The notes under the pieces: generated by a model | What the model was told of the DNA's origin: nothing | Databases searched by the model: none | Seen by the model: only the letters and a program-made list of their open reading frames with translations | Shown: positions 17,514 through 60,398 of the stretch, in pieces | Layout of the letters: every line of letters begins with the position of its first letter | How positions within the stretch are numbered: the first letter of the stretch is position 1 | Program-made: the position numbers and the translations under genes | Assembly (NCBI GenBank): GCA_903888765.1 | Contig: CAISVF010000039.1 | Coordinates: 1-62,701, forward strand | Direction: 5' to 3' | Length of the DNA: 62,701 nt | Origin: an uncultured Verrucomicrobia subdivision 3 bacterium | GTDB lineage: Bacteria > Verrucomicrobiota > Verrucomicrobiia > Limisphaerales > UBA11358

Positions 17514-19943
17514 ATGAACCTTCTCGCGAAAACACTTTTTGGAGGGGCTTGGGCCGCCGGCCTAATGGCCGTTTCCTTGCCAGCTCAAACCAGCGTTGAT
17601 TTTGGCAGCCTGCCGATGCGTTTCGAAGCCAATGGAGGCCCGGTGGAAGCCGCCGAATCCTTTATCGCACGCGGACAGGACTCGGAGTTCCTGATCACTG
17701 CCACCGGCGCTCAGTTTGCTTTGCGGCAGGCTTCCGGCCAGATCGAAACGGCAACCATGCAATTCGTGGCCGCCAATTCGACGGCCAACGTTGTCGGTGC
17801 CGCACCATTAAGCGGCAAGATCAACCATCTGCTTAGGCGCCATGCTGCCGATTGGCGTACGAACATGCCGACCTTTTCCCAGGTGCGCATTGAAAACATT
17901 TATCCTGACGTCAATGTGGTTTATTACGGAAATGGCCGCCAATTGGAATATGATTTTGACCTCGCCGCCGGAGTTGATCCACGAACGATTGCACTGCGCT
18001 TCGATGGCGCACGGCAACTTTCCATCAACCAGCAAGGACAACTTGTCGTAGCCCTGAACGGCGGTTCAATCACCCAGCATCAACCGGTCGCTTATCAAAA
18101 TTCCGGCCCAGACCGCCGAATCATTTCCTGCAACTACCAATTATTGGACGACCATACGGCCACGTTTGCGTTGGGCGGGTACGATCATAGCCAGCCGCTG
18201 GTGATTGATCCGGTCTTAAGTTTTTCCTCCTATTTCGGTGGCAATAGCACTGAAATCGCCCACGCCATCGCGGTAGATACGAATGGCTGCATATATGTCG
18301 CGGGCGAAACTTTGTCCACGCTTTGGACCAATGGCGTGACCGGCAAATATCAGACCAATTTCCGTGGCGGCAGCATCACCGGGGATGCGTTCGTGGCAAA
18401 ATTTGACAGCACCGGCAAAACCAACCTGTATTTCACCTACCTCGGCGGCAGCTCGGATGATGTCATCTATGGGCTCGCAGTGGACAACTCCGGCAATGCG
18501 CATATTACCGGGGCCACTCGCTCCTCCGATTTCCCCACAAATAATGCTTTGTATGGCTATAAGACCGGCTCGCTGCCGGGCTATTACGGGCTGGCTTTTG
18601 TGGCCGAGCTAAACACCAACGGATCCCAACTGGTATATTCAACCTATTTGAGCGGGTACCTGGCTGATGCCGGCTATGCCATTGCGGTGGACGCGCAGCA
18701 AAACACGTATGTTGCTGGCTACACCGTCTCTACCGGTTTCCCTGTCACCAGCAATGCGCTGCAAAAAAACCTGGTCTGCACCAATTCGATTTATTTTAAT
18801 CGCAACGCCTTTATTGCGGAAATTTCGGCCTATGGCACCAATCTAATTTATTCCTCTTATCTGGGCGGACAGAATTACGACCAAGCCAGCGGCATAGCCG
18901 TGGACGTGGCGAATTACGTTTACGTGAGCGGATTTACCGCCTCAACGAATTTCCCCACCACCAATGCGCTGGCCGGTTTCAAGCATCTTAACGGTGCGAC
19001 CAATGCCTCGCCTTCCTATGACGCATTTGTTTGCAAATTTTATCCAGGCTTCACCAACCGGGTTTACGCCACCTTTCTTGGCGGCACCAACAATGATGCC
19101 GCCACCGGCATAACTGTGGACACCAACGGTAATGCCTACGTGGTCGGCTGGACCATTTCCACCAATTTTCCCGGAGCTCGCCAGAATGACGGGTTTACCA
19201 ATTGCACCGGCTTTGTAAACAACCAGATTACGAACAATGTGATTAACTGGCTGGGCATCACCACCAACACCTTCCTTACCGAAATCAATGCCAGCGGATC
19301 CAACATCCTGCACACCGCCGTTTTTGGCGGATTCACCATGGATATCGCCAATGGCGTGGCTCTCGACACCGCAGGCAATATTTACGTGGCCGGCAATGCC
19401 ACCTCGACCAATTTCCCGGTAACGCCGGCTGCTCTGGTGGGATCCCTTCGCTCCACCAATTCCGGCGGCAGCGATGTGTTCATTACGGCCTTTAAATCCG
19501 ACTGGTCCGCCCTGCTCTATTCCACCTATTTAGGCGGCTCCCTGAATGACGCTGGCAATGCCATTGCGGTGGATGCCACCGGTAATGCCTTTATCGCCGG
19601 CCAGACGTTTTCCCTGAATTATCCATGGTTCAATGCCGTGCAACCGGGCATCAATAACGGTTCCTTGAACAATGGTACGAGCGATGCTTTCCTGACCAAA
19701 ATAATGCCCGCCGCCCCCATACCCCATCTTCAGACCCGTTTATCCGGAACCAATGTCACGGTTTCATGGTCGCCACTCGGCGAAGAAGCACCAGCGTGGT
19801 TTGGGCTGCAAACCACCACCAATTTACTCGTTTCCAGTGCTTGGAGGCTGACGACCAATTCCGCCGCGCTGACCAACAATGCCTACACCTACACATTTAG
19901 CAAAACCAACCAGACCGGTTTTTTCCGTCTGATTAAATTTTAA
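17514..19943 (+). CDS. Secreted beta-propeller repeat (SBBP-type) protein with a C-terminal FFRL-type tail domain
   Basis: Signal peptide MNLLAKTLFGGAWAAGLMAVSLPAQ. There are at least 8 repeats of the pattern G...D.A.[GA]IAVD..GN.Y[VI][AT]G.T.S..FP.T. The protein ends ...VTVSWSP...LQTTTNLLVSSAWRL...GFFRLIKF. Confidence 0.75.
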   Translation: MNLLAKTLFGGAWAAGLMAVSLPAQTSVDFGSLPMRFEANGGPVEAAESFIARGQDSEFLITATGAQFALRQASGQIETATMQFVAANSTANVVGAAPLSGKINHLLRRHAADWRTNMPTFSQVRIENIYPDVNVVYYGNGRQLEYDFDLAAGVDPRTIALRFDGARQLSINQQGQLVVALNGGSITQHQPVAYQNSGPDRRIISCNYQLLDDHTATFALGGYDHSQPLVIDPVLSFSSYFGGNSTEIAHAIAVDTNGCIYVAGETLSTLWTNGVTGKYQTNFRGGSITGDAFVAKFDSTGKTNLYFTYLGGSSDDVIYGLAVDNSGNAHITGATRSSDFPTNNALYGYKTGSLPGYYGLAFVAELNTNGSQLVYSTYLSGYLADAGYAIAVDAQQNTYVAGYTVSTGFPVTSNALQKNLVCTNSIYFNRNAFIAEISAYGTNLIYSSYLGGQNYDQASGIAVDVANYVYVSGFTASTNFPTTNALAGFKHLNGATNASPSYDAFVCKFYPGFTNRVYATFLGGTNNDAATGITVDTNGNAYVVGWTISTNFPGARQNDGFTNCTGFVNNQITNNVINWLGITTNTFLTEINASGSNILHTAVFGGFTMDIANGVALDTAGNIYVAGNATSTNFPVTPAALVGSLRSTNSGGSDVFITAFKSDWSALLYSTYLGGSLNDAGNAIAVDATGNAFIAGQTFSLNYPWFNAVQPGINNGSLNNGTSDAFLTKIMPAAPIPHLQTRLSGTNVTVSWSPLGEEAPAWFGLQTTTNLLVSSAWRLTTNSAALTNNAYTYTFSKTNQTGFFRLIKF

Positions 19944-19994
19944 ACCGGCATTTTCTGCTCGCTAATTAAAAAAAAACTGCTTTCATTCCTGCCC

Positions 19995-20603
19995 ATGAAA
20001 AATTTACGTTCACTCATTGTGACCTTGACCTTGGTGGCAGCCGCTCTTTCGGCCGGGGCCCAGACCAAACTGGCCACCGTGGACATGAAGAAACTGTTCA
20101 ACAGCTATTACAAAACCACTCTGGCACAGAGTTTACTGGAAAAAAGCCGGGCTGACCTGCGCAAAGACCTGAAGGAAATGACCGATAATCTGGAAAAATC
20201 CCAAGCTGATTATAAACTAATTCTGGACCAATCCAACGACCCGGCGATTTCCGCAGAAGAACGGGAAAAGCGGAAACAAGCCGCGACGGACAAAGCCCGG
20301 GAAATTAACAGTTCCAAGACGGCGCTGGAACAATATCAGCGGCAGGCCGAAGCCAGTCTCAGTGATAAAAGCCAACGCATGAGCGCCAATCTGGTAACGG
20401 AAATTCAGAAATTCGTGGCCGAAGTGGCCAAAGCCGGCAGTTATTCACTGGTGTTGAATTCCGCGACCGCCGAGGTTGTGGTTTTTCATGATACCAGCAC
20501 CGATATTACGGAATCCGTTTTAAAGCAGGCAAATGCCGGAGCGCCCATTGACGTCACCAAACCGGCCGGGTTACCGCTGAATGTCAAGACCAACCTGCCC
20601 TGA
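19995..20603 (+). CDS. skp: Periplasmic chaperone Skp/OmpH family
   Basis: Signal peptide, then the KLATVDMKKLF motif and a long Lys/Glu/Gln coiled-coil region. It sits downstream of bamA. Confidence 0.8.
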   Translation: MKNLRSLIVTLTLVAAALSAGAQTKLATVDMKKLFNSYYKTTLAQSLLEKSRADLRKDLKEMTDNLEKSQADYKLILDQSNDPAISAEEREKRKQAATDKAREINSSKTALEQYQRQAEASLSDKSQRMSANLVTEIQKFVAEVAKAGSYSLVLNSATAEVVVFHDTSTDITESVLKQANAGAPIDVTKPAGLPLNVKTNLP

Positions 20604-47061: not shown

Positions 47062-50000
47062 TCAATATTTCAACCGATAAAACACCGCCGGGTTGGCCGG
47101 ATTGATGGTCATGATTATTTGATTGGTAGTCGTTGATCCGCTTACGTCAGACCAGGTAGCCGAAAGGCCAGTGCTCAAGGAATTGGTTTGCGACTGCAAG
47201 GTCCAACCAGTGTGATCAGCCGGCCAATGGAGCGTGAGTTTGTTGCCCTGGACGCTCATGACCAGGTTCGTCCGCGAGGTGTTCACCAGAGTGCCCACCA
47301 CCAGGGTATTCGTGCTGGCGGCGTAGAAGCTATCGCCCGAGTAAATGGCCGTGATCGTGTAAGCAGCTGGCACGACGGTGGGGCTGCTGTTGGCAGCACC
47401 GGTCGCCACGGTGCCCACACTCTGCGCCACGGTGTTGGTTTTGAAAGCCACGGTGCCGGTGGCAGCGGTCGCTGGCATTCCGTTGGTGTTTACGGTCGCG
47501 GTGAAGACGGCGCCAGACTGAACCGTGGAGGCAATCACGCTGGGTGAGCCGGAAGCGGAGGTGGTGGACAGCGAGACGTCGTCAACCAACACGCCGCCAG
47601 AATCACCGAGAACCGCGCCGGTTACGGATATAATCTGAACCAGAACAGTCGCGGCACCCGCCGGAGCCACCGCCGGGGCAATGCTGATTTGGGTCCAGCT
47701 GCTCAAGCTCGAGGACAAGGTCGTCCAACCGCTGGGATTGAGCGTGCCGAGAATGTTGCCGCTGCCGTCCATCCAGACCGGATTATATTGCTGAACCGCG
47801 CTGAATCCGGTCTTGGGAAGTGACTTGGCCCAGAAGGAGCAGCTGTAGGTATTCCCCGGGATGATGGCCGCGCCACCCTTATTATAGACGTTCTCTTCCA
47901 AAATGGACGTCTGGGCTCCTGCGGTGTCGTTGGTGACATAAAGCGATTCACAAGAGGTGCCCGTGTGAGCATCCGTACTGATCCAGGTCGGCAACGTGGT
48001 CCCCAGCAGCGACCAACTGAAACTGGGATCGCTCTCAAAGTCGCCCTGCTGAACTTCTTCCGTGGTGACCGGCGTGTCTTGCAGGACTTGATAGTAAGCC
48101 GCCGGCGCCGGGTCATAAACTGAGGTCACCGCCGAACCGGTCAACTGGCTGCCCAGATTGTTCCAGGTGCTGTTGTCGGTCGAGCTCTGTACCTGATAAT
48201 AATTGCCGCTAACCGCGCTCCAACTGATTTCCTTCCCCGAACCGACCGAGAGGGCCAGCGTCGTTGGAGCCGCACCGACGGGTGCTCCCACCACACTGCC
48301 GTAGGTGTTGCCGGTGCGAATCTCGTCGAATACATCAGCATTGCCGCCACCTTGAACGTTGAATCCAATCCCGGTGATCGTGCCTACATCGTAAGCGCTC
48401 CACACCAGATTAGCGGCTCCTGCCGGCGCGTTTGTGCCCGCTACGGGGTCCAGCCATAGGCTAACCGTATCGTTCGCCCCAGAGGTGTTGAAATCAATTT
48501 TCAAGACGATCAGATGGGCTTGGTTATAGGTTAAACCGCCATTCACTTGCTGTCCGGAGAAGGTGGTAATCCCCGTGGCTCCGGCCCCGGCGGTGGCAAC
48601 TGAACCGAGCCCCAAACTACCGGCAGTGCCACTGTAGGCAGCCGTGATTCCTACGATGAGACTGGAGGATCCGCTGCCAAAAAGCACGAGTCCATTCAGA
48701 TTTGCTCCGTTATTGCCAAGCTGGTTGAAAAGGAAACTGACATACTTCGTCCCGGTGGAAAGGGGGCTGGTCAAGGAGACCTGATCGCGGCTGCCCGTTG
48801 TGGAAATGGCGTTGTGTGAAGCAGATAGTCCGGGGTAGGTCAAACCGCTGACAATGGTTCCATTTCCGACGGTCCAGTTGCCTGTCAGTCCGTTGCCCGT
48901 GTTAGCCGAGCCGGTGGCAAAACTTCCGAGGCCATAATTAAACGACTCGTAAGCGTTCACGAAAGCGACGGGTGAGGCGCTCACTTCTGAAGAATTGGCA
49001 CTCTGGCCGGCGGAATTGGTGGCGGACACCTCATAAAAATAAGTCGTGCCGTTAGCCACGGTTAAATCCGTGAAACTGGTCGTGCCTGCAACGGCGATGG
49101 TAACTTCCGCGCCGCTGGTGGTCGAGCGTTTCACATTGTAGCCGGTAGCCGCAATACTGGCGCTCCAACTCAGCGAAACCTGACCATCACTCACGCTTGC
49201 TGCCAAGCCGCTGGGGACAGCCGGCGCGACCAGGGTTGGCGCAGCCGACACTTCCGCGCTGTTGGCACTCTCGCCGCCAGCATTCACCGCCGAAACAACA
49301 TAGAAGTAAGTTGTTCCACCGGCGACAGCATCAGTAAAATTCGTTCCCGTCACCGCGCCAGCGCTGGAAACCGTCACATAGCCCGAACCGCTGCTGGTGG
49401 AGCGCTTCACATTATAACTGACCGGGCTTCCGGCAGCGGCGTTCCAAGTCAAGTTGACGGAATTGCCGCCAGACGTGGCACCTAATCCAGTCGGAGCCGA
49501 CGGTGCCGCGACGATATAGTCAACTGCTTCAGACCAGGTGGTCCCAATGCGCAGCTCATCAAACACAAAATTACCACCAGCACCGGCGGGGTTCACAATC
49601 GAGCAGGCGCTAATGGTAAATTGGGGCATCGTAAACGTGCCGTCAGGCGTTGATTCCGTGCTGGTGTTGGCCGTAGGATTCACCCAGATGCTGCCCGTCC
49701 AACCCGCACCAGTGCCGACGAGTTTCACCACGATGAAATAGGTGTTGCCGTAAGTGATATTGGCCGTGGTGGATTCCCATTTATTGGCGGCACTATCATT
49801 GTAGCCACTCTGTTGGTTTACCCCCAATTTCCCGGTTGTGCCGGTGACCGGGGTCGTGACACCCACGAACATGCCGTTGCCGCCCGTGTTCATTTCCAAG
49901 CCAACCTTGTTGCCGCCGGGGTTGCCGCTCATGTTGAAAAGATAGCTAACATATACCGTGCCGCTAGAAACCGGACTCGCCAAATTCTCGCCGGAATAAG

Positions 50001-50316
50001 CAGCGGTTTGCTTTAATGCATTGTAGGTTGTCCCTAGGCCCGGATACGTCAGACCGGCAACGGTTGTGAGCCCGCCTCCATTATACCCGCTGCTGAATCC
50101 GCCGCCAGTCGTCTGGGTGGGCGTGCCCGAGGCATTGCTCGGTGCCGCGCCTAAAGTGTAATTATATGGCTCGTGAGCGATGAGCGACGCGAAGGCGTTC
50201 GTCGCTGCCAACAAGACGAAGGCTAAAACCAGACGGGGTATTGATAATTTGTTTGATGCTTTGCCCGGCGCATTTTGATTTTGGCCGGATATTGTTTTTA
50301 TTTTGATTTTATTCAT
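47062..50316 (-). CDS. Giant secreted modular protein (1084 aa): unassigned module x2, FN3 x2, CBM4/9-like domain, Ig-like domain and two FYRL-type domains (one internal, one C-terminal)
   Basis: Signal/anchor LVLAFVLLAATNAFA. The unassigned modules lie at nt 49519..50184 and 48286..48960. FN3 repeats show PTGL/PSGL...YNVKRST. The protein ends ...LTLHWPADHTGWTLQSQTN...WSDV...AVFYRLKY. Confidence 0.8.
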   Translation of the reverse strand: MNKIKIKTISGQNQNAPGKASNKLSIPRLVLAFVLLAATNAFASLIAHEPYNYTLGAAPSNASGTPTQTTGGGFSSGYNGGGLTTVAGLTYPGLGTTYNALKQTAAYSGENLASPVSSGTVYVSYLFNMSGNPGGNKVGLEMNTGGNGMFVGVTTPVTGTTGKLGVNQQSGYNDSAANKWESTTANITYGNTYFIVVKLVGTGAGWTGSIWVNPTANTSTESTPDGTFTMPQFTISACSIVNPAGAGGNFVFDELRIGTTWSEAVDYIVAAPSAPTGLGATSGGNSVNLTWNAAAGSPVSYNVKRSTSSGSGYVTVSSAGAVTGTNFTDAVAGGTTYFYVVSAVNAGGESANSAEVSAAPTLVAPAVPSGLAASVSDGQVSLSWSASIAATGYNVKRSTTSGAEVTIAVAGTTSFTDLTVANGTTYFYEVSATNSAGQSANSSEVSASPVAFVNAYESFNYGLGSFATGSANTGNGLTGNWTVGNGTIVSGLTYPGLSASHNAISTTGSRDQVSLTSPLSTGTKYVSFLFNQLGNNGANLNGLVLFGSGSSSLIVGITAAYSGTAGSLGLGSVATAGAGATGITTFSGQQVNGGLTYNQAHLIVLKIDFNTSGANDTVSLWLDPVAGTNAPAGAANLVWSAYDVGTITGIGFNVQGGGNADVFDEIRTGNTYGSVVGAPVGAAPTTLALSVGSGKEISWSAVSGNYYQVQSSTDNSTWNNLGSQLTGSAVTSVYDPAPAAYYQVLQDTPVTTEEVQQGDFESDPSFSWSLLGTTLPTWISTDAHTGTSCESLYVTNDTAGAQTSILEENVYNKGGAAIIPGNTYSCSFWAKSLPKTGFSAVQQYNPVWMDGSGNILGTLNPSGWTTLSSSLSSWTQISIAPAVAPAGAATVLVQIISVTGAVLGDSGGVLVDDVSLSTTSASGSPSVIASTVQSGAVFTATVNTNGMPATAATGTVAFKTNTVAQSVGTVATGAANSSPTVVPAAYTITAIYSGDSFYAASTNTLVVGTLVNTSRTNLVMSVQGNKLTLHWPADHTGWTLQSQTNSLSTGLSATWSDVSGSTTTNQIIMTINPANPAVFYRLKY

Positions 50317-50386
50317 TGAATTTACATGTTTGAGTTTATTGTTATTATGCGGGGAACAACTTAACCATACACCACCACCCGAAATT

Positions 50387-50414
50387 GCCTAGCTAGCCGA
50401 GTGGCTAGTTTTTT
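50387..50414. promoter_or_regulatory. Conserved double-palindrome motif, copy 1 (gcctagctagccgagtggctagtttttt), 71 nt upstream of the 1084-aa gene ATG
   Basis: One of three near-identical copies (see 55382 and 57658). It contains CTAGCTAG and CTAGCC-N4-GGCTAG. Confidence 0.6.
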
Positions 50415-50877
50415 CCAGATACTCACAAAAGCATTTCATGAAAAATGGCATGCCGTCACTCTTGGAACATCAGCACGCGGCTTTGCGGTTGAACTCAATT
50501 TCGACCGGCGCTGCCTGAACTTGCATCGCTTGCAGGCGGAGTCACCATACGAAAACAAACTGGTGGCTAGAAAATGACCACCACCAGCCCCGCAATTCGA
50601 AGCAAAGCAAATTTTTAAACCACCAATTGGTCGAATGCCCGGCAAAATTGCTATCATTCTATAGCGGCATAATTTCGCGTTTTTTCGCAACCAAACATCA
50701 TTGCCAGAAAGATTTGTGCTTTATTAGTGGTGCAGGCCAACGTTTATAACTTATTTGCCCTTGGCCCAAAAAATGCGGGCTTAAGGATTGGGGCACGGAT
50801 GTCAATGCTCGCATTGACCATCAGGAGTTCGACCAGGCAAATTATTATTAGAATGAATTATTTTACGTTTTTCCCGC

Positions 50878-50913
50878 AAAAGGGACGGGTTCACCAAAGG
50901 AAAACCCGTCCCT
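50878..50913 (-). terminator. Hairpin terminator candidate after the 1457-aa gene
   Basis: Minus strand: agggacgggtt-ttcctttggtg-aacccgtccct followed by tttgcggg. The U-tract is short. Confidence 0.45.
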
Positions 50914-50935
50914 GCATTATTTAGCTGTTAGCAAC

Positions 50936-53900
50936 TTACTGAATCAAGTGCAAGCGATAGAATGCCGACTTGGGAGTCGCCCCCAAGTCGCTGAAGTTAT
51001 CTACGCTAGTGACATTCCCACCCACCGGCGCGGTGATTGCTGGGAAATTGGAGATGCCAGCGGTGAAGGTGACATTGGTTGCGCGCTGCAAGGAATATTG
51101 TTTTCCGGCAATGCCAGACATCACCACCTGGGCTTGACCCGAGGTCAAACTCACCAACCCCGATCCGAAGCCAAAGTTAGCACTCGGCACCAATACCCCC
51201 ACGTTGTCGAAGCCGACCGTGGAATTGGCACCCCATTCCGGAACTACCACGACGCCGGTACAATTCGCCGGTATGGTGACGGTGAAGCTATAGGTTGTCC
51301 AGGAACCTCCGTTCAGAATCCTGGAGGGAAACATATCTCCGGTGCTTCCCGAGGGGGAAAAATCAACCTTGAGGCCGCCAATGGAATTGCCGGACATGAG
51401 CATCATATCTTCGACAAATGTATAGGTCTGGCCGGCTACCAAGCCCAATGATGCCAGCGGGATCGGGGAATTGTTATTAGCCACCCAAATACCCCAACCG
51501 CCACCGACATTAGCAATGACCCCGTAGCCTGTGGGATTGCCACCGGTAGCCAGATAACTGAAGGTATTTCCGCCTCCCTGCACTTCCACCCAAGAACCCA
51601 AACCACCTGCTGGAGACTCAAAATCACCATCTGGAACCAATATTTTGGTGAAATTACCCACGGTGACATTCACTACGGCTGATGTAACGGCGTTGCCGTT
51701 GCTGTCTTTGGCCACGACTTTCAGGCCATGAGAGCCGGCGGATGCGCCAGACACCGAGTAACTGTAAGGACTGCTGGTTGCATTTCCAAGCAATACCGCC
51801 CCGTCGTAAAAGCTCACATTGGTTACCGAACCGGGGTTGACGACAGCGGTGGCGCTAATAGTAAAGTCAGGCAAAATGGCGGCGGTGTTGGTGGGACTAG
51901 CTATTGAAGCATTCAGCGGTGTGGTGACATTGCCACCCACCACATCCCCATAGCTACCACCGACGCGAACTTCATCAATGATGGCACCGTAGGCCCCTTG
52001 AATATTGATCCCGAATTTGGTGATAGAACCCACATCGAATGAGCTGTCCACAACATTGGCATCAACGCCCGGAGCACTTACGCCTGCTGGCGGATCAATC
52101 CAGAGGCTCACCGTATCATTGGCCCCAGAAGTATTAAACTCAAGCTTCAGAACCACCAGATGAACCGCAGTATTGCTAATGGGAATTGTGCTCCCCAAGG
52201 GGGTGGCACCACTCAGTGCGGTGCTACTGACCGTGCCCAAGCCAAAACTGGTTTGGCTGGCGCTGTAGCCTCCTTCAAAACCCACGAATAGGCTGCTGGA
52301 GTTATCTCCCTGAAGAAACACACCGGCAGCAGTGGCGCCAGGATTTCCGGCACCCTGCATTAAGAAGCTGACATACTTTGTGCCATCATTTAGCGGACTG
52401 CCAAATGCCAGGGAATTTTGACTGCCTGTAGCATGATGCTGATAGGCATGGCCAGTCGTAGGAAGGCCTGGGTACGTCAACCCGGCAACAATCCCAGCAC
52501 TCGTCGGAAGCGTCCAGTTGCCAGTGAATCCCGTGCCGGTATTGGCGGTTCCGTCAACCAAACTGCCCGTCCCATAATTAAAGGGTTCATAGGCATTGAA
52601 CGACGGTATGGGGGCATTGGTCACGAAAACTGTGACCATCGGGGACGTCGCCGAATTGCCATGGCTATCGGTCGCCACCCCCGTCAGCGCATGACTGCCA
52701 GCGGCCAGACCGATGGCGCTATAACTGAATGGTTCACTGGCTGCATTGCCAAGCCACGTGGCACCATCATAGAAGTCAACCCCGGTCACAGTGGCATGTC
52801 CGACCGAAGCATTCGCCCGGATCGTAAGATTGGAATAAACCACCTGATTATTGGTTGGGCTTGAAATGGACACAGTTAACGGCGTGACAGTGTAATAAAA
52901 ATAAACGTTGTCTATGTAGAAATCACGAACCGGGTTTTCCCCGGAATTGTTTATAATCCAGCCTAATTGATTAATCTGGGTTAAATCCATTCCGGGATTA
53001 TTAGCCTTAAACTGGCTCAAGGGTATATCCAAATGCACCCAGCTATTGGAGGTAATGACGCCCCCGGCTGTCGTGTAAGTAACATCTGCGGAACCACCAA
53101 CCGCCGAAATTAAACGGACCGCAAAACTATCACCATTGGGAGTATAGACATCGACATGAAGTGTGTTATAGCCGCTCACATCATTCGCACTGTGCATGCC
53201 CACGCCAACAAACTGCAAGCCCTGATAGCCAAGCACGACATTGGTCGTGCCCGGGATTGTGTAATTGCCATGCCCTGTCCATTGTCCGGCCCACCATTGC
53301 TGGTAGAAGTCATCTACCAAAATATTGGTGTAAACTCCTCGGCTATTCCACAGTGAAAGCACCTGCCCCTGTGGGAGTGTGGGTGCAGCAGTCACAATGG
53401 CCGGGGTGGGCAATACCGTGATATGCACCACCGCTGAAGTGGTACTCAGACCATTGTTTGCATGGGCTGCAGCCGTCACGGCATGGCCACCAGCCAGGGC
53501 GGTCCAGGCGGAGCTAAACGGGCTACCAGCTGAGCTGCCAACCAGCGTGCCATCAATATAATAACCCACGTTCGTTACCGCTCCAGCCGTCATCACCGTA
53601 AGCGGCACACTGGCCCCCGTAAGTACCGCACTGCCGTCGCTTGGGCTGGTCAGAGCAACCGTCGGCGGCAGATTTGCCGCCGTAACGTGAACCACTGCGG
53701 AAGTGGCCGCAATGCCACCGCTGTCCCGCGCGACCGCCACTAGGGTATGAGCGCCGTTTGCCGCACTGGGCACATTGAAAATGAACGGTGCATTAGTCAC
53801 ATTCCCCAGCAGGGTGCTGTCCAAGTAAAAGGCAATATTGGTTACCGTGCCAGGAACCACAGAGCCCGTGGCGCTGACCACGAATCCGCCGCCGTTCACC

Positions 53901-55309
53901 GCCGCATTATTGGTCGGACTCGTGATGGAGACAGACACCGGCAAGGGCGGAACCATGACGCCAATATTGTCATAACCGACTGTCGAATTGGCACCCCATT
54001 CCGGTACGACCTTAAAGCCAGTGGTGCCTGCCGGAATAGTCACCGAGAAGGAATAGGTGGCCCAGTCGCCGCCATTCAAAATACTGGATGGAAACATATC
54101 TCCGGTGGAACCTGAAGGCGTAAAATCAATCTTGAGTCCGCCAACGGTGCTGCCGGAGATGAGTTTCATATCTTCGACAAATGTGTAAGTCTGGCCCGCC
54201 GTAAGGTTGAATGCAGTAAGAGAAATGACGGCATTGTTATTTCCAACCCAAAGTCCATAGGCTCCGCCGACATTAGCCATAACCCCATAACCACCCGGAT
54301 TTCCGCCCGTCACTGGATAGCTATACGTGTTCCCGCCACCCTGGGCAACCGTCCAGCTGCCACTGGTACCCGCAGGGCTATCAAATCCCCCATCCGGAAA
54401 CAGAGCCAGAACCGGGGTGGCAATAGTAACGTTCACCACGGCGGAGGTGACACTATTTCCACTGCCATCCTGCGCCACCGCCGTCAGCGCATGGGGCCCG
54501 TTCGCCAAACCGGTGGCGGAGAAGTTGTACGGAGCGCTGTAAACGCTCCCCAGCAGCGAACCATTGTCATAAAAATCAACGCCGGCAATCGTGCCCGGAT
54601 AAATTGAAGCCGGCGCAATAATCGTAAAGTTTCCAGAGGCCAAAGTAACGCCACTGACCGGACTCGTGATCGCCACATTTAGAGGTACCGGTCGACTAAC
54701 AAAATAGAAATTATCTATATAAAAATCTTTGCCGCCATCCAGCAAACCGATTTGGTGAATTTGTGTTAAATCTAAAGCCGGATTGGCTGCGGTAAACTTG
54801 CTCAAGGGAATATCCAAATGCACCCAAGTGTTGGCGACAATGGCCCCCGCATCGGTGTAAACATTAGCCTCACCACCCGCATAAGAAACCAGCTTGATAC
54901 CGAAACTGCTGCCATTGGGAGCAAAAACGTCTAAATGCAAATAATTGCAGGAATGAAAATCATAGCCCGCGTTTAAATTGACCCCTCCGTAATTGACCCC
55001 TGTGTAGCCCAACACCACGCTCGATGTTGAAGGCACCGCGTAAGGCCCGGCCGTCGCCCACCCTCCCCAATATTCATAGTAATTGATGTTAGAAAGATTC
55101 ACGTAGGTCCCACTGCTATTATACAAGCTTTGGACAGTCGGTGATAAATCGATCGGCGCGGATGGAACCGTGGTTGGCTGGGCCTGCCCACGCCCTGCTC
55201 CACCAAGAATGACGATTATCGTCAAGATAAGAAAAAACCATGTGTTAAGTGATTTGACCAGCACAGACTGATTCGAGCCGGACATTTTTTGTTTATTGAA
55301 TGTACTCAT
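50936..55309 (-). CDS. Giant secreted modular protein (1457 aa): CBM-like X x2, Ig-like x5, CBM4/9-like Y x2, unassigned module x1 and an FYRL-type tail
   Basis: N-terminal anchor/signal WFFLILTIIVILGGAG. The X modules are at nt 54695..55177 and 52892..53389 (..LH.DV..PNG.SF...L.S..GG.A.V.......V....WVHLDIPLS.F.A.NP..DLTQI.Q.G.....DFYIDN.YF). The Y modules are at 53948..54409 and 51185..51646. The unassigned module is at 51932..52597. The protein ends ...KSAFYRLHLIQ. Confidence 0.8.
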   Translation of the reverse strand: MSTFNKQKMSGSNQSVLVKSLNTWFFLILTIIVILGGAGRGQAQPTTVPSAPIDLSPTVQSLYNSSGTYVNLSNINYYEYWGGWATAGPYAVPSTSSVVLGYTGVNYGGVNLNAGYDFHSCNYLHLDVFAPNGSSFGIKLVSYAGGEANVYTDAGAIVANTWVHLDIPLSKFTAANPALDLTQIHQIGLLDGGKDFYIDNFYFVSRPVPLNVAITSPVSGVTLASGNFTIIAPASIYPGTIAGVDFYDNGSLLGSVYSAPYNFSATGLANGPHALTAVAQDGSGNSVTSAVVNVTIATPVLALFPDGGFDSPAGTSGSWTVAQGGGNTYSYPVTGGNPGGYGVMANVGGAYGLWVGNNNAVISLTAFNLTAGQTYTFVEDMKLISGSTVGGLKIDFTPSGSTGDMFPSSILNGGDWATYSFSVTIPAGTTGFKVVPEWGANSTVGYDNIGVMVPPLPVSVSITSPTNNAAVNGGGFVVSATGSVVPGTVTNIAFYLDSTLLGNVTNAPFIFNVPSAANGAHTLVAVARDSGGIAATSAVVHVTAANLPPTVALTSPSDGSAVLTGASVPLTVMTAGAVTNVGYYIDGTLVGSSAGSPFSSAWTALAGGHAVTAAAHANNGLSTTSAVVHITVLPTPAIVTAAPTLPQGQVLSLWNSRGVYTNILVDDFYQQWWAGQWTGHGNYTIPGTTNVVLGYQGLQFVGVGMHSANDVSGYNTLHVDVYTPNGDSFAVRLISAVGGSADVTYTTAGGVITSNSWVHLDIPLSQFKANNPGMDLTQINQLGWIINNSGENPVRDFYIDNVYFYYTVTPLTVSISSPTNNQVVYSNLTIRANASVGHATVTGVDFYDGATWLGNAASEPFSYSAIGLAAGSHALTGVATDSHGNSATSPMVTVFVTNAPIPSFNAYEPFNYGTGSLVDGTANTGTGFTGNWTLPTSAGIVAGLTYPGLPTTGHAYQHHATGSQNSLAFGSPLNDGTKYVSFLMQGAGNPGATAAGVFLQGDNSSSLFVGFEGGYSASQTSFGLGTVSSTALSGATPLGSTIPISNTAVHLVVLKLEFNTSGANDTVSLWIDPPAGVSAPGVDANVVDSSFDVGSITKFGINIQGAYGAIIDEVRVGGSYGDVVGGNVTTPLNASIASPTNTAAILPDFTISATAVVNPGSVTNVSFYDGAVLLGNATSSPYSYSVSGASAGSHGLKVVAKDSNGNAVTSAVVNVTVGNFTKILVPDGDFESPAGGLGSWVEVQGGGNTFSYLATGGNPTGYGVIANVGGGWGIWVANNNSPIPLASLGLVAGQTYTFVEDMMLMSGNSIGGLKVDFSPSGSTGDMFPSRILNGGSWTTYSFTVTIPANCTGVVVVPEWGANSTVGFDNVGVLVPSANFGFGSGLVSLTSGQAQVVMSGIAGKQYSLQRATNVTFTAGISNFPAITAPVGGNVTSVDNFSDLGATPKSAFYRLHLIQ

Positions 55310-55381
55310 AATTTTAACGTTATTTAATTTTACAATTTTGCTACGGGCTTAAGGTGCAACTTTACACCATACACCCTATGT

Positions 55382-55409
55382 GCCTAGCTAGCCGAAAGGA
55401 TAGTTTTTT
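55382..55409. promoter_or_regulatory. Conserved double-palindrome motif, copy 2 (gcctagctagccgaaaggatagtttttt), 73 nt upstream of the 1457-aa gene ATG
   Basis: See copies at 50387 and 57658. Confidence 0.6.
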
Positions 55410-55517
55410 AGGGCCGTCCTTCCTGCGTTTTTTGAATCGAATGCGGTAAAATCTGCCATGTGGCGCTAATCGGCACGGCAAAACATTCCTGAAGCCGTTT
55501 CCACGGTAAGCATGATA

Positions 55518-57581
55518 TTATTGCAACTGAATCCGGAAAAACTCCTGATGCGCCGTCACAGAATTGGTGCGTGGTGGGGTTGCTCCGCTGACCTTGGTCC
55601 ATGGCCCGGCAATGTTGCTGGCGGATTGAAGCGTGCCCGTCGGCCAGTTCAAAACCACGCTTCCCCCCACGTATTGAGCCGCCATCTTGGCCAGTGGATT
55701 GACCTTCACAAAGGTTGTCGCCGACGGCGACGCGCAGCCGCCGATGACCGCCTGCACACTGAACAACCCGGACAGGTTTGTGGTCGCATTCGTAATGGCC
55801 GGATTTTGATTGGTGGAGGTAAATCCGCTTGGGCCGGTCCAACTGTAGGTAGCTCCTGACACCGTCGAAGCCGCCAGATTTAGGTTCATGCCCGCCCAAA
55901 GCGGCCCGTTGTTGGCGGCCGTTGGGGCCGCCGGCTGGGGAAGAATGATTTCAATGCCACTCGATTTGGGCTGGTCAGCTGTACCGGCTGTGTAGGCAAC
56001 AATAATCTGTCCGCTGCCATTGGGAGTGCCGGTGAACTCGCGGATGATCGCCTTGTTCTGGCCGCCGGCCGCCGCAAAAATGTCGTAGTTCGTCAATACC
56101 TGCGTGCCATTGAGGGCCACGTTGAATTTTCGCGCATTGGCTGCGTTCCAATAATATTCGACAAAGTGTAAACGAACTTTGTACGTGGCTCCCGGCGTGA
56201 GGCCGCCAAAAGTGTAGGTAAAAGGACCGTAGCGCTCGGTTTGATAAACCGTCTGCGGAGCCGGCGCGTTCACACCACTGATGTCAATGGCGGAGGTCGT
56301 CGGTGCCGCCTGAGTACCGCCGGTAAAGTAGGCATCCGCCATGAAATGGCCGGCTGCACTCCCGCCGGAATTGACGGCCAGGGCGAAGGAGCCCAGCGCG
56401 GCGGGCTGCTCGCTGGAATTGGCACTCTCGCCAGTCGCGTTGGTGGCGGATATCACGTAGTAGTACGTGGCACAATTGGCGACGTTCGTATCCGTGTAAT
56501 TATTGACCAGCGAATTCGCAACCGTGGTGTAAGGTCCGCCGCTGCTGAGCGAGCGCTTGATGTTATAACCGCTGGCACCGGAGTTCGGGGCCGACCAGCT
56601 TAAAAACACCCTGGCGTTTCCGGGGCTCACGCCCAAGCCAGTGGGTGGGCCCGGCGGGGCAGACACGTACTTATAAACGCGGACATAATCCACCAACATT
56701 TGTTGGGGCCATACGCTTGTTCCATCAGGGTTGCCAGGCCAGTTGCCGCCGACCGCGACATTGAGCAGCAGGAATTGCGGCTGCATAAAAACCCAGGTCG
56801 AACTGCCGGGCAGGCTGGCTGGCGTGGCCGCAAAAAACAAATTGGTATCAACGAACCATTGGATTTGATTGGTCGTCCATTCCACGGCAAAAATGTGGAA
56901 GCCATCGGCGAGCGCCGCCCCGCCCGGCAGCGTATAGGTTGCGCCAACCCCGCTACCGCCATTGTAATCCCCACCCGACTGCGGGCCATGAATCGTGCCG
57001 TGCGTCGTGCCTTGATCGCTGGCCTTGCCGATGTTTTCCATGATGTCAATCTCGCCGCAGGCGGGCCAGCCGACCGAATCAATGTTGGTGCCCAGCATCC
57101 AGAACGCGGGCCAGAGGCCCTGTCCTCGGGGAATCTTGATGCGCGCCTCCATACGACCATAGGTCCAGGACCATCTGCCTTTGGTCAACATCCGAGCCGA
57201 GGTATAACTGCTGCCGCCGTAGCTTTCCTGATTGGCTTCAATGACTAGTTGCCCGCCCACCACGCGGGCGTTGTTGGTGCGCGCGGTGTAATATTCCAGC
57301 TCGTTGTTTCCCCAGCCGCCGTTGCCGGTGTTGTAAACCCAGTTGGCGGGATTGGGAGAACTCCCGTCCGGCTGGTTAAATTCATCTGACCAAAGCAGTT
57401 GCCAGTCGGCATGAACAGCCAATGGCACCGCCAGCAGGGCCCAAAGGCCGGCCAGAAAATGGATTCTTTTCATCCAACGATATTTCATATTTGTGGCCGC
57501 TCGAATCATCGTCCAGACCGGGTGGCTGGGCCTTGCAGCCAGCGAACTGCCCCCAATGACCTTTGCAAACCATGCGGACAT
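55518..57581 (-). CDS. GH16 beta-1,3-glucanase (laminarinase), FN3, malectin-like domain, Ig-like domain and an FFRI-type tail
   Basis: GH16 catalytic motif ACGEIDIMENIG together with WPAFWMLG. FN3 is marked by PTGLGVSPGNARVFLSWS...YNIKRS. The malectin-like part shows YQTERYG.FTY...YKVRLHFVEYYW....RKFNV.LNG. The protein ends ...VVLNWPTGTLQSASNIAGPWTKV...EFFRIQLQ. The signal peptide follows internal ATGs at 57488/57473, so the start is uncertain. Confidence 0.9.
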   Translation of the reverse strand: MSAWFAKVIGGSSLAARPSHPVWTMIRAATNMKYRWMKRIHFLAGLWALLAVPLAVHADWQLLWSDEFNQPDGSSPNPANWVYNTGNGGWGNNELEYYTARTNNARVVGGQLVIEANQESYGGSSYTSARMLTKGRWSWTYGRMEARIKIPRGQGLWPAFWMLGTNIDSVGWPACGEIDIMENIGKASDQGTTHGTIHGPQSGGDYNGGSGVGATYTLPGGAALADGFHIFAVEWTTNQIQWFVDTNLFFAATPASLPGSSTWVFMQPQFLLLNVAVGGNWPGNPDGTSVWPQQMLVDYVRVYKYVSAPPGPPTGLGVSPGNARVFLSWSAPNSGASGYNIKRSLSSGGPYTTVANSLVNNYTDTNVANCATYYYVISATNATGESANSSEQPAALGSFALAVNSGGSAAGHFMADAYFTGGTQAAPTTSAIDISGVNAPAPQTVYQTERYGPFTYTFGGLTPGATYKVRLHFVEYYWNAANARKFNVALNGTQVLTNYDIFAAAGGQNKAIIREFTGTPNGSGQIIVAYTAGTADQPKSSGIEIILPQPAAPTAANNGPLWAGMNLNLAASTVSGATYSWTGPSGFTSTNQNPAITNATTNLSGLFSVQAVIGGCASPSATTFVKVNPLAKMAAQYVGGSVVLNWPTGTLQSASNIAGPWTKVSGATPPRTNSVTAHQEFFRIQLQ

Positions 57582-57657
57582 AGAAAAGGTTTGGTTTTAT
57601 GGGAGAAGCGACTAATGACCCGGATGATGCGAGAAATATGCCGCTCAACTGCCAAAT

Positions 57658-57684
57658 GGCTAGCTAGCCGAGCGGCTAGTTTTA
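57658..57684. promoter_or_regulatory. Conserved double-palindrome motif, copy 3 (ggctagctagccgagcggctagtttta), 77 nt upstream of ATG 57581 and overlapping the response-regulator stop codon
   Basis: See copies at 50387 and 55382. The last three bases (tta) are the reverse complement of the regulator's TAA stop. Confidence 0.6.
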
Positions 57685-58314
57685 CAAGCCCTGTCCCTGC
57701 TTGAATTTCAAGGCCGCTTCTGTGCGCGAATGCACGTGCAGTTTCTCGTAAATATGCTGCAAATGGAATTTCACCGCCGCTACCGTCACCCCCAGGCGAT
57801 CCGCAATGGCCTTGTTGGCATGGCCGTGCATGACCAGTTCCAGCACCTCGCGTTCCCGGCCGGAAAGGTCTTCCATCTGTTGCGCCGCCGTGGCCTGGCC
57901 GCGAAACTGGCCGATCACTTTGCGCGCGATTTCCGGCGTCATCGGCACGCCCCCTTCGTGCGCCTCCTTGATGGCGGCAATCACTTTCTCCGGCTCCGCG
58001 CGCTTCAGCAGGTACCCGCAGGCGCCGGCGCGCAAGGCCTGGAAAATCCGCTCGGAATCCTCATATACGGTGACAATGACAATGTGCACCGCCGGCATTT
58101 GCTCCTTGATTTTCGCGGTGCATTCCACGCCGGTGGAATCCGGCAACTGAATATCCATCAAGATCACGTCCGGCGCGGCCTTGGGAATTTTCTTCAACGC
58201 CTCCGCCACCGTGCCACAGGTGCAGACACATTGGAAACCGGAGGTGCGGTTGAGCAGCGTCTCAAACCCTTCGCGCACGGTTTTGTTATCTTCAACAATG
58301 GCAACTTTGATCAT
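57682..58314 (-). CDS. Two-component response regulator, NarL/FixJ (LuxR-type HTH) family
   Basis: Receiver domain (IKVAIVEDN, PDVILMDIQLPD, IVTVY.D) plus the GerE/LuxR HTH LSGREREVLELVMHGHANKAIADRLGVTVAAVKFHLQHIYEKL. Confidence 0.92.
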   Translation of the reverse strand: MIKVAIVEDNKTVREGFETLLNRTSGFQCVCTCGTVAEALKKIPKAAPDVILMDIQLPDSTGVECTAKIKEQMPAVHIVIVTVYEDSERIFQALRAGACGYLLKRAEPEKVIAAIKEAHEGGVPMTPEIARKVIGQFRGQATAAQQMEDLSGREREVLELVMHGHANKAIADRLGVTVAAVKFHLQHIYEKLHVHSRTEAALKFKQGQGL

Positions 58315-60398
58315 AAGAATTTAGCCGGTAGCGGCGCGCAAAAACGGACGGTCGTTCCCTTGTGCGGGTCGCTGGTGATTTTACATTCGCCGCCGAGCGC
58401 CTGCAATCGCTCGCTCATATTGGCCAGCCCGTCTTCGCCGGGGTGCCGCTGGCGCGGGTCGAAACCGCGGCCGTCATCGGCCAGTTCCACGATCAGGCTC
58501 CCGGCGCGTGCAGAAATCCGCAGCCACACCTGCTTGGCCGTGGCGTGGCGCACCACATTGTTCAGCGCTTCCTTGAACGCAAAAAAAAGATCCTGCCGGA
58601 ATTTCGGGTCCAGCGGCAGCTCCGGCAGATCCTCCGCGATGTCCAAGCCGCACATCACTCCGGCGATGTCCAGCAACCGCTGCGCATAGGCGCCAAAATA
58701 ACTGGCCAGCGAGGCGATGGTGTCATTGCGCGGATTCACCGCCCAGACAATTTCATCCAGCGACGTCACCATTTGCGCGGCGGTCTGGGTGAGTTCGCTC
58801 AGGTAGCGCCCCTTTTCCTCCGGCGACGTAGTCTGGCTTTTGGCCAGCGTGGCGAGCATGTTCACTTCGGTGAGGCGTGAGCCGAGGTCATCGTGCAGGT
58901 CGTGGGCAACGCGGGCGCGCTCTTGTTCGATCTCCCGCCGGCGTTCGGCAAGTTGCCGTTGCTGAATTTCAATTTCCAGTTCGCGGGTCCGCTCGGCCAC
59001 CTGCCGCCGCAACACTGCCACCCAGCCAAAGGCCGCAAGCATGGCAAAGGTCAACCCGGCGGCCATCCACAGCATCTTTTGCAGCGTCCACCAGGGCGGA
59101 GATTCGAGCAGTGCCTCGTCGGCCGGCGAGCGTAATAGTATGCCGAAAGATTTTGCCCGCCAGTTTTCGCCGGCCTCCCACGTGCCTGGGTCAATCCGGC
59201 AGACGCCGGTCACGGCCACGCGGCTGCCATTGGCCGGCAGGCCGGTCGTGGCCACACCCTGCGGCAGTTTGAGGCTGGCCTGGAAAATAAAATTGCTGTC
59301 CTGCAGGATCAGAAACTGTTCGTTGCCGTGCTGGGTGACATCAATCAAACGGGCGGCAACCTGAATCAACCGGCAGTCATGTTTGCCTTTCAGCGCCTCG
59401 TCGGTCGTCAGGCGATCGGGGAAAATGCCGGTGCTGTTCGAGATTTTCCGGTAGATGGCGTCTTGCAACAGCGGCGTATAAATACCCTGGCTGACAAAGC
59501 CCAAGGCCTCGACGCGTTCGCCCACCTGAAGCGGCACACGTTCCTTGGTTTGAATTTCCACCCCGTGCTGCCCTTCCTGTAAAAACAGCACCACGCCCGG
59601 CTCATAATAAATCACCGTGCCGACGAGCTTGACCCGGTGGCCATAGCTTTCCTGCGGCGTGAATTGCAACAGGCTGCTGATGGGGCGCGCCACCCTGGCA
59701 AAGGGATTTTCGGACGCCGGGATTTCAATTTTGAAATCCTCCGGCCGCGGCACCATGAGCTGGATGGCAAAAAGCTGACGCTGATGATTAAAAAGTGTTG
59801 AGCAGACGCCGCGCACCCGCACCGTGCTATCGAGCAACTCTTCCGGCCGCGCCACCGGCAGCGTCTTGGCAAAGACCACCAGCCGGCCGCCACTAACCGT
59901 CATTTCAATCTGGTAATGGGGCGTTTTCTCCATTGGCCGGACCGATCGGACAATACCGGCAACTTCGACAAACTGACTGTCTTCCGTGCCGGCGGCCAGC
60001 TGCTCATACGTCACCACTTTCGCCGGCGGCAACGCCTGCCTGCCCGTGACCTGAATTTTTTCCACCGTCACCACCGGCGCATATTCACCGGGACTCCCAT
60101 AGCCCGTCACCTCAACCGTCTGCCCCGGATCCAACCGGGGTGGCCCAACACCGTTGGGGAATTGCAGGTAAATGCCAGCGGTGTCGTCTTGCAGAAAACG
60201 CGAGAACAAAGTTTCGTCATAATACGTCACGACCCCGTGGAGTCGGACCGGGATTTTTTGCTGTGTCTGTTCGACCGTCAAGCCGCGCACGGCCACAATG
60301 GTCTCCAGTTCCTTCGCCTGCGTGCAAATCCCGCCTGCAGACCAAAGCAAAACCAGAACGACTAAATATTGCGGCCTAAAAATGCCGGAGTTTATCAC
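58311..60398 (-). CDS. Sensor histidine kinase (HisKA_3 plus HATPase_c) with a ~410-aa extracytoplasmic sensor domain of unassigned family
   Basis: Signal/TM1 YLVVLVLLWSAGGICTQA. Sensor and TM2 lie at nt 59010..60314. H-box VAHDLHDDLGSRLT, N-box FKEALNNVVRHA and G-box DDGRGF..GLANMSERL are present. The gene overlaps the regulator gene by ATGA. Confidence 0.9.
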   Translation of the reverse strand: MINSGIFRPQYLVVLVLLWSAGGICTQAKELETIVAVRGLTVEQTQQKIPVRLHGVVTYYDETLFSRFLQDDTAGIYLQFPNGVGPPRLDPGQTVEVTGYGSPGEYAPVVTVEKIQVTGRQALPPAKVVTYEQLAAGTEDSQFVEVAGIVRSVRPMEKTPHYQIEMTVSGGRLVVFAKTLPVARPEELLDSTVRVRGVCSTLFNHQRQLFAIQLMVPRPEDFKIEIPASENPFARVARPISSLLQFTPQESYGHRVKLVGTVIYYEPGVVLFLQEGQHGVEIQTKERVPLQVGERVEALGFVSQGIYTPLLQDAIYRKISNSTGIFPDRLTTDEALKGKHDCRLIQVAARLIDVTQHGNEQFLILQDSNFIFQASLKLPQGVATTGLPANGSRVAVTGVCRIDPGTWEAGENWRAKSFGILLRSPADEALLESPPWWTLQKMLWMAAGLTFAMLAAFGWVAVLRRQVAERTRELEIEIQQRQLAERRREIEQERARVAHDLHDDLGSRLTEVNMLATLAKSQTTSPEEKGRYLSELTQTAAQMVTSLDEIVWAVNPRNDTIASLASYFGAYAQRLLDIAGVMCGLDIAEDLPELPLDPKFRQDLFFAFKEALNNVVRHATAKQVWLRISARAGSLIVELADDGRGFDPRQRHPGEDGLANMSERLQALGGECKITSDPHKGTTVRFCAPLPAKFL

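Follow-up and report, generated by a model that had tools for sequence, protein, structure and literature searches.

The subject of this analysis is a short dyad motif that occurs three times in a 62,701-nt contig (CAISVF010000039.1, assembly GCA_903888765.1) of an uncultured Verrucomicrobia subdivision 3 bacterium; the whole of this stretch is referred to below as the window. All three copies stand upstream of genes. A sensor histidine kinase gene, a response regulator gene and three genes for secreted proteins, all of them on the minus strand, make up the locus together with the motif copies:

58311-60398, minus strand: partner sensor histidine kinase (HisKA_3 and HATPase_c)
57682-58314, minus strand: NarL/FixJ-family response regulator (REC and GerE/LuxR helix-turn-helix (HTH) domains, 210 amino acids, phospho-acceptor D54), the presumed binder of the motif
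57658-57684, minus strand: copy 3 of the candidate operator, with A-tract 57680-57683, left half-site CTAGCC 57674-57679, spacer GCTC 57670-57673, right half-site GGCTAG 57664-57669 and proximal hexamer CTAGCC 57658-57663
55518-57488, minus strand: target 1, a secreted protein with glycoside hydrolase family 16 (GH16), fn3 and malectin domains (the longest open reading frame reaches 57581)
55382-55409, minus strand: copy 2, with left half-site CTATCC 55398-55403 (one mismatch), spacer TTTC, right half-site GGCTAG 55388-55393 and proximal hexamer CTAGGC 55382-55387
50936-55309, minus strand: target 2, a secreted protein of 1457 amino acids with Big_7 immunoglobulin (Ig)-like repeats and sub-threshold matches to CBM_4_9 and CBM30
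50387-50414, minus strand: copy 1, with left half-site CTAGCC 50403-50408, spacer ACTC, right half-site GGCTAG 50393-50398 and proximal hexamer CTAGGC 50387-50392
47062-50316, minus strand: target 3, a secreted protein of 1084 amino acids with two copies of an unannotated domain and fn3 repeats

On the gene (minus) strand the motif reads AAAA-CTAGCC-N4-GGCTAG-CTAG(G/C)C, and an ungapped alignment of the three copies extends over 52 nt. Copy 1 has zero mismatches to the 25-nt consensus of the family, and copy 3 overlaps the TAA stop codon of the regulator gene (57682-57684). An exact search of the whole window placed CTAGCTAGCC at these three places and nowhere else. With one mismatch allowed, the same search gave six strand-matches, all within the three sites, against an expectation of 1.22; none of 100 shuffled sequences reached six. 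Searches of the window for CTAGCC-N4-GGCTAG and for the 25-nt consensus, each at zero to one mismatch, likewise returned three sites. No further, weaker copies emerged when up to seven mismatches were allowed, the rest of the window matching at five to seven mismatches, which is the level of shuffled sequence. The tetranucleotide CTAG is itself about 6-fold rarer in the window than expected (40 observed versus 238 from base composition and 55 from trinucleotides), and one fifth of its occurrences (8/40) fall inside the three copies.

Much of this had been described in an initial annotation made from the sequence. The three copies with their positions and letters, the restriction of CTAGCTAGCC to them, the 6-4-6 inverted repeat with its single mismatch in copy 2, and the adjoining GerE/LuxR-type regulator whose stop codon is overlapped by copy 3 were all borne out, the copies lying far beyond chance. 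The T-run that it placed on the plus strand is the conserved A-tract of the gene strand and belongs to the site.

Conservation of the motif and its link to the regulator gene

We scanned 185,579 species, each represented by one genome, with the pattern AAACTAKCCNNNNGGCTAGCTNG. The scan yielded 49 stretches, ∼38 of them labelled Verrucomicrobiota and mostly Pedosphaera, Limisphaerales or subdivision 3. Apparent chance matches numbered only three (Zhongshania, a Cytophagales metagenome-assembled genome (MAG) and an alphaproteobacterial MAG). Most matches directly follow '...HVHSRTEAALKFKQGQ', the C-terminus of the orthologue of the window regulator, including several in MAGs labelled as other phyla, and the TAG stop codon of the regulator gene is often the TAG of CTAGCC. 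The remaining copies lie elsewhere, ahead of secreted-protein genes, and several MAGs hold both regulator-linked and unlinked copies. The scan gives no per-genome copy numbers. Its output lacks the site of Pedosphaera parvula, which fits the pattern, and hence the genome collection misses at least some genomes. Some contigs that carry a Verrucomicrobia-type regulator together with the motif come from MAGs labelled Bifidobacterium, Actinomycetota, Sulfotelmatobacter, Acidiferrales or Dongiaceae (L006, L007, L016, L020, L022, L031, L036 and L048); these are probably mis-binned or mislabelled.

A second sample was assembled from the regulator instead of the motif. It comprises 80 metagenome loci picked by regulator orthology alone (81-92% amino acid identity), in which a motif was called at no more than four mismatches over 21 scored positions. 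In 67 of the 75 assessable loci the motif sits at or overlaps the stop codon of the NarL/LuxR-type regulator gene, and in several of the others it lies a few hundred nucleotides further along. The adjoining non-coding DNA is fully diverged at these loci. All 77 sites share the strand of the regulator. Among 129 unique sites, 40 have no neighbouring regulator gene. A motif scan of related genomes had been suggested as a check in the initial annotation; nearly all of the matches come from the lineage in which the regulator occurs.

These data bear on the possibility that the motif is a dispersed repeat, of the repetitive extragenic palindromic (REP) or miniature inverted-repeat transposable element (MITE) type, without a specific regulatory role. 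Such a repeat could explain a palindromic element present in several copies per genome, and the initial annotation had named it among the findings that would undo its proposal. We regard this as almost certainly wrong. The window has three copies in 62.7 kb, each upstream of a gene; orientation is the same in 77/77 sites; the element holds an orthologous position across dozens of species; no repeat structures lie alongside it; and conservation is absent past ∼50 nt. The idea is effectively refuted by copy number, position and orientation.

The logo of the collected sites reads AAAA CTAGCC GCTY GGCTAGCT AGGC. Hardly any variation affects the right half-site, while the left varies at its fourth position (G in 50 sites, A in 18, T in 4). 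Operator variants do occur, such as GGCCAG in L116/L117. One T of the spacer is near-invariant, the final four bases are less conserved, and the 6-4-6 spacing of the half-sites is the same in all 73 distinct sites.

Promoter geometry and the probable action of the site

In the window, a −10-like hexamer follows each copy exactly 17 nt past the last motif hexamer:

50364-50369, minus strand: TATGGT, after copy 1, inside the 10-mer GGTGTATGGT
55359-55364, minus strand: TAAAGT, after copy 2
57635-57640, minus strand: CATATT, after copy 3, kept in the strain variants L004, L055 and L065

The same geometry is seen across genomes. Among the 73 distinct sites, TAnnnT stands at 17 nt in 51 and at 18 nt in 10 (61/73 for the two spacings together), with four sites at 19 nt and nearly all of the remaining offsets at 0-2. 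G is enriched at about −14. The −35 position is occupied by the proximal hexamer CTAGGC, which agrees with TTGACA at one of six positions; because of this poor fit, and because the hexamer is a conserved part of the motif, the promoter is expected to be weak unaided. If transcription is taken to start ∼7 nt past the −10 element, which in the window would be near 50357, 55352 and 57628, the centre of the dyad lies at about −43.5. The sequence thus has the features of a class-II sigma-70 promoter, namely a fixed −10, a centre between −41 and −44 and a weak −35, with the start position being a predicted one.

Two claims of the initial annotation need revision in this light. It had given distances of 71, 73 and 77 nt from the copies to the downstream ATGs and treated them as fixed. 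The arithmetic is right, but this distance is not conserved: between loci it varies from 27 to 445 nt, with a median of ∼90 nt when measured from the end of the 25-mer. What is fixed is the spacing to the −10. It had also reported a 10-mer, GGTGTATGGT, shared by two copies. Both occurrences exist (minus strand, 50364-50373 and 55366-55375), but the 10-mer is no more than the −10 region of copy 1. At copy 2 it is 7 nt out of register, the in-register hexamer being TAAAGT.

We consider it likely that the motif is an operator-promoter module of a two-component system, conserved in Verrucomicrobiota of the Pedosphaera/Limisphaerales type, that would activate secreted-protein genes from a class-II position. 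The earlier proposal that the kinase/regulator pair controls the GH16 gene and the two giant-protein genes through one operator finds good support in the comparison of loci, namely in the linkage at 67/75 loci, the uniform orientation with both the regulator and the downstream gene, and the 17-nt spacing to the −10. Under this model, the kinase (58311-60398) would sense a periplasmic signal, plausibly an oligosaccharide derived from beta-glucan, and phosphorylate the NarL-family regulator (57682-58314) at D54. A dimer of the phosphorylated regulator would then occupy the inverted repeat, with the third hexamer possibly offering an extra contact for the regulator or for sigma. Bound at the class-II position, it would recruit RNA polymerase to promoters that have no usable −35, and the three units of the window (GH16, the Big_7/CBM giant and the lectin-like/fn3 giant) would be switched on. 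Since no terminator lies between the regulator gene and copy 3, the GH16 gene might also be reached by read-through from the kinase-regulator operon; basal read-through of this kind could, speculatively, give low constitutive GH16 expression.

Several observations weigh against this model. The consensus scan of the window found no copy upstream of the kinase-regulator operon, so the autoregulation that is common among such two-component systems is lacking here. The association of regulator and site is drawn from gene adjacency and co-conservation. The criterion of at most four mismatches by which sites were collected makes the scored positions look more conserved than they are. Furthermore, the site spans the −35 position and could equally repress, and the plus strand of the element can fold into a terminator-like hairpin. 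The last two points each lead to a different account of the site.

Repression is the main alternative: the same regulator at the same site would block RNA polymerase at −35 until displaced by the signal. Both repression and activation are known from NarL-family regulators. However, the hexamer at the −35 position, with its single match to TTGACA, belongs to the conserved motif; the centre at about −43.5 is the classic position of a class-II activator; and the enrichment of G at −14 fits a promoter that works independently of a −35. On these grounds we judge repression to be unlikely, although it comes ahead of the other alternatives.

As to the hairpin, the element could be a plus-strand rho-independent terminator or insulator (stem AGCUAGCC/GGCUAGUU followed by a U-run), or a processing or stability element on the sense strand. 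The plus strand folds into 6-8 bp at −10 to −16 kcal/mol (−11 to −16 for copies 1 and 3) ahead of the U-run, copy 1 was listed by a terminator scan, and the commonest variant of the left half, G to A, keeps a G-U pair on the antisense strand. Were pairing under selection, compensatory changes would be expected; there are zero over the six stem pairs of the 73 distinct sites. Pair 4 is unpaired in 23/73 sites, and pairing is broken on both strands in copy 2 and in 7/72 logo sites. Neither the folding of both strands nor the pair counts favoured a selected structure. Sequence conservation extends to the spacer bases, which would form the loop, and to positions beyond the stem. The plus strand has no gene that ends at the element, the gene strand has no U-run, and a hairpin leaves both the fixed 17-nt spacing to the −10 and the uniform orientation unexplained. 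A search of Rfam with the element (E ≤ 1) returned no match. Taken together, the lack of compensatory changes, the conservation at the level of sequence, the fixed −10, the orientation and the negative Rfam search argue that the element acts as a DNA site and not as RNA, and we hold a primary role as a hairpin to be very improbable.

The site might also have another reader, either an alternative sigma factor with GGCTAGCTAG as its −35 element or an unlinked transcription factor, in which case adjacency to the regulator gene would reflect conserved synteny. The 40 of 129 unique sites that are not beside a regulator gene would be accommodated in this way, as would the proximal hexamer located exactly at −35. 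Against this, the TAnnnT −10 is of the housekeeping-sigma type, and the dyad symmetry and 6-4-6 geometry suit a dimeric HTH protein. Of 75 regulator orthologues, 67 have retained the site at the 3′ end of the gene despite full divergence of the non-coding DNA next to it, and several MAGs with unlinked sites also hold a regulator-linked one. We therefore see a different reader as a minor possibility, less probable than repression.

The regulator, its sensor and the predicted secreted targets

Returning to the class-II activation model, we considered the proteins that would take part in it. The nearest solved relatives of the regulator are VraR/LiaR, DevR and NarL. Its scores against NCBIfam equivalog models are all far below the cut-offs (e.g. 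145 bits versus 250 for NarL), and it therefore represents a distinct orthogroup. The kinase is kept at 65-84% identity in more than 100 clusters, Pedosphaera parvula Ellin514 among them. In Ellin514, the gene order is kinase, regulator, motif (AAACTAGCCATTCGGCTAGCTGGGC, then TAGAGT), an fn3 giant protein, a TIG/fn3 protein, a di-haem oxidoreductase (DHOR) and a GH16-malectin protein.

The periplasmic domain of the kinase (59064-60317, minus strand; ∼410 amino acids) is predicted to consist of four tandem OB-folds, with a predicted local distance difference test (pLDDT) score of 85. Sequence searches of the PDB and Pfam gave no specific PDB relative and only a weak match to the tRNA_anti-codon OB family. 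The predicted structure resembles only generic tandem OB-fold proteins, at low template modelling (TM) scores, so no ligand can be inferred for the sensor from these matches. Judged from the model, it looks like an uncharacterised architecture that is conserved across the lineage. In one sub-clade (L027, L043, L133 and L134) a further motif copy stands before the gene of a longer kinase, of 1145-1175 amino acids, whose C-terminal 650 residues are 42% identical to the window kinase; the position of this copy suggests autoregulation in that sub-clade.

The start of the GH16 gene required correction. The initial annotation took the ATG at 57581 as a conserved landmark, but this codon is ATT in L004 and absent in L055 and L065. 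With the codon lost in close relatives, and with most gene calls beginning at 57488, 57581 was rejected as the start. The ATG at 57488 is kept in three of four aligned sequences and that at ∼57470 in all four, both just before the signal peptide, and translation probably begins at one or the other. This would leave a 5′ leader of ∼140-160 nt. Within the leader region (57470-57630, minus strand), some blocks are conserved from strain to strain, for example CATCATCCGGGTCAT.

Just past the stop codon of the 50936-55309 gene, at ∼50877-50912 on the minus strand, a strong hairpin, GGGACGGGT...ACCCGTCCC, is followed by TTTT and forms an intrinsic terminator; its long loop caused a simple terminator scan to miss it. 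A non-coding spacer of 520 nt separates this terminator from copy 1. Given the terminator and the spacer behind the Big_7 gene, the target genes appear to be separate transcription units, each with a copy of its own.

A co-directional open reading frame lies downstream of 112 of the 129 unique sites, and in 102 of these 112 the N-terminus resembles a signal peptide. A Pfam scan of 68 downstream proteins found Big_7 in 11, fn3 in 10, Ig_3 in 8, GH16 in 7, PEP-CTERM in 6 and GH3 in 5, with DHOR, PA14 and SGBP_B_XBD also present. We infer that the output of the regulon is a set of extracellular glycan-degrading and glycan-binding proteins with a beta-glucan flavour.

The two copies of the unannotated domain in target 3 occupy residues ∼45-265 and 455-690, starting with '(Y/H)E(P/S)(Y/F)NY' and ending with 'FDE(L/I)R.G'. 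The same 'YEPFNY'-type domain opens many motif-driven genes of other genomes. It corresponds to no Pfam family, and a homologue search found six proteins only. A medium-confidence structural model (pLDDT 67) gave weak matches to concanavalin-A-like lectins (TM 0.34-0.46).

Other features of the downstream genes were also noted. The 50936-55309 gene contains an internal duplication of ∼380 nt (51185-51566 versus 53948-54329; 71-75% identity, 2763 nt apart) as well as further, shorter repeats. Giant proteins (window 50190-50316 and 55200-55309, minus strand; also in L026) have long N-terminal leaders with a common 'SGQNQ/SGSNQ' ahead of the hydrophobic signal segment, which may be an extended signal-peptide region. 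DHOR genes recur within or just upstream of motif-driven units (L031 at ∼7000, L034, L044, L135 at 18855-20576, and P. parvula), making DHOR an unexpected companion of the glycoside hydrolases.

A more ambitious version of the model can be put forward tentatively, and we think it doubtful in its entirety. It posits a hitherto unrecognised glycan-response regulon across the whole of the Pedosphaerales/Limisphaerales, in which a kinase with a novel type of periplasmic sensor, of four tandem OB-folds, would detect beta-glucan products and the CTAG-rich operator in the regulator stop codon would drive GH16, GH3 and giant lectin-like surface proteins. Read-through would keep the first target at a basal 'sentinel' level, and the element would double as an antisense terminator.

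Relation to known systems and significance

The closest parallel in layout is the ComA box of Bacillus subtilis, which consists of two inverted hexamers with a 4-nt spacer and an extra degenerate promoter-proximal element, lies upstream of the RNA polymerase site and is bound by a dimeric response regulator with a tetrahelical HTH (PMC4797271). The Verrucomicrobia motif shares the 6-4-6 inverted repeat and the degenerate element on the promoter side (PMC4797271). In contrast, its half-site is CTAGCC and not TTGCGG, the phylum and regulon differ, and its third hexamer adjoins the inverted repeat without a spacer, at the −35 position. Nor is the regulator an orthologue of ComA, its solved relatives being those named above. 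The motif thus has the geometry of a ComA box and is not a member of that family.

A second parallel is the lux-box. In class-II activation by LuxR/TraR proteins, a 20-bp dyad is centred near −42.5. Here too a dyad of ∼20 bp (A-N-CTAGCC-N4-GGCTAG-N-T) is centred at about −43 and overlaps a poor −35, and its putative reader has a GerE/LuxR-type HTH. Unlike LuxR, however, the regulator carries a phospho-receiver in place of an autoinducer-binding domain, so that its input comes from a histidine kinase instead of an acyl-homoserine lactone. Half-site, regulator orthology and input domain all place the motif outside the lux-box family.

Among two-component systems, NarL/NarP, UhpA, VraR/LiaR and DevR have the same combination of a HisKA_3 kinase with a NarL-family regulator. 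These regulators bind inverted-repeat sites, and the dyad described here may be read in the same way. The operator sequence and target genes are unrelated to theirs, and the regulator belongs to a distinct orthogroup. Three sequence-level traits of a NarL/FixJ operator are present: a nearby REC-GerE regulator with its HisKA_3 kinase, dyad half-sites with a short fixed spacer, and co-occurrence across genomes. In genomic context, the system recalls the regulators of polysaccharide utilization loci in Bacteroidota (hybrid two-component systems, SusR and BguR), as secreted glycoside hydrolases and glycan-binding proteins appear to be under the control of a membrane sensor encoded beside them. It differs from those regulators in being a classical two-protein system with a tandem OB-fold sensor and a LuxR-type HTH output, and in having no SusC/D genes; its glycan signal is a presumed one. 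Literature searches with the motif strings returned primer sequences only, and searches on Verrucomicrobia/LuxR promoters and Pedosphaera two-component systems brought up no mention of this system.

To our knowledge, transcriptional regulation in the Verrucomicrobiota is almost unstudied, and most of the lineage is known from metagenomes only. The motif is a real and strongly conserved cis-regulatory element. In Pedosphaera-type Verrucomicrobiota it most likely serves as the operator-promoter through which a NarL-family two-component system controls an undescribed regulon of secreted glycan-active proteins. No new regulatory principle is involved. The analysis yields an operator of ∼25 bp with a defined promoter geometry, a kinase-regulator pair as its putative partner and targets that form a coherent set (GH16, GH3 and secreted proteins rich in lectin, CBM and Ig domains), conserved over dozens of species. 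Since the system is present in the cultured P. parvula Ellin514, the prediction lends itself to direct testing. With the motif, the regulon of any MAG in this group can be read out, which would provide a handle on how extracellular polysaccharide degradation is controlled in the abundant Verrucomicrobia of soil, peat and freshwater.

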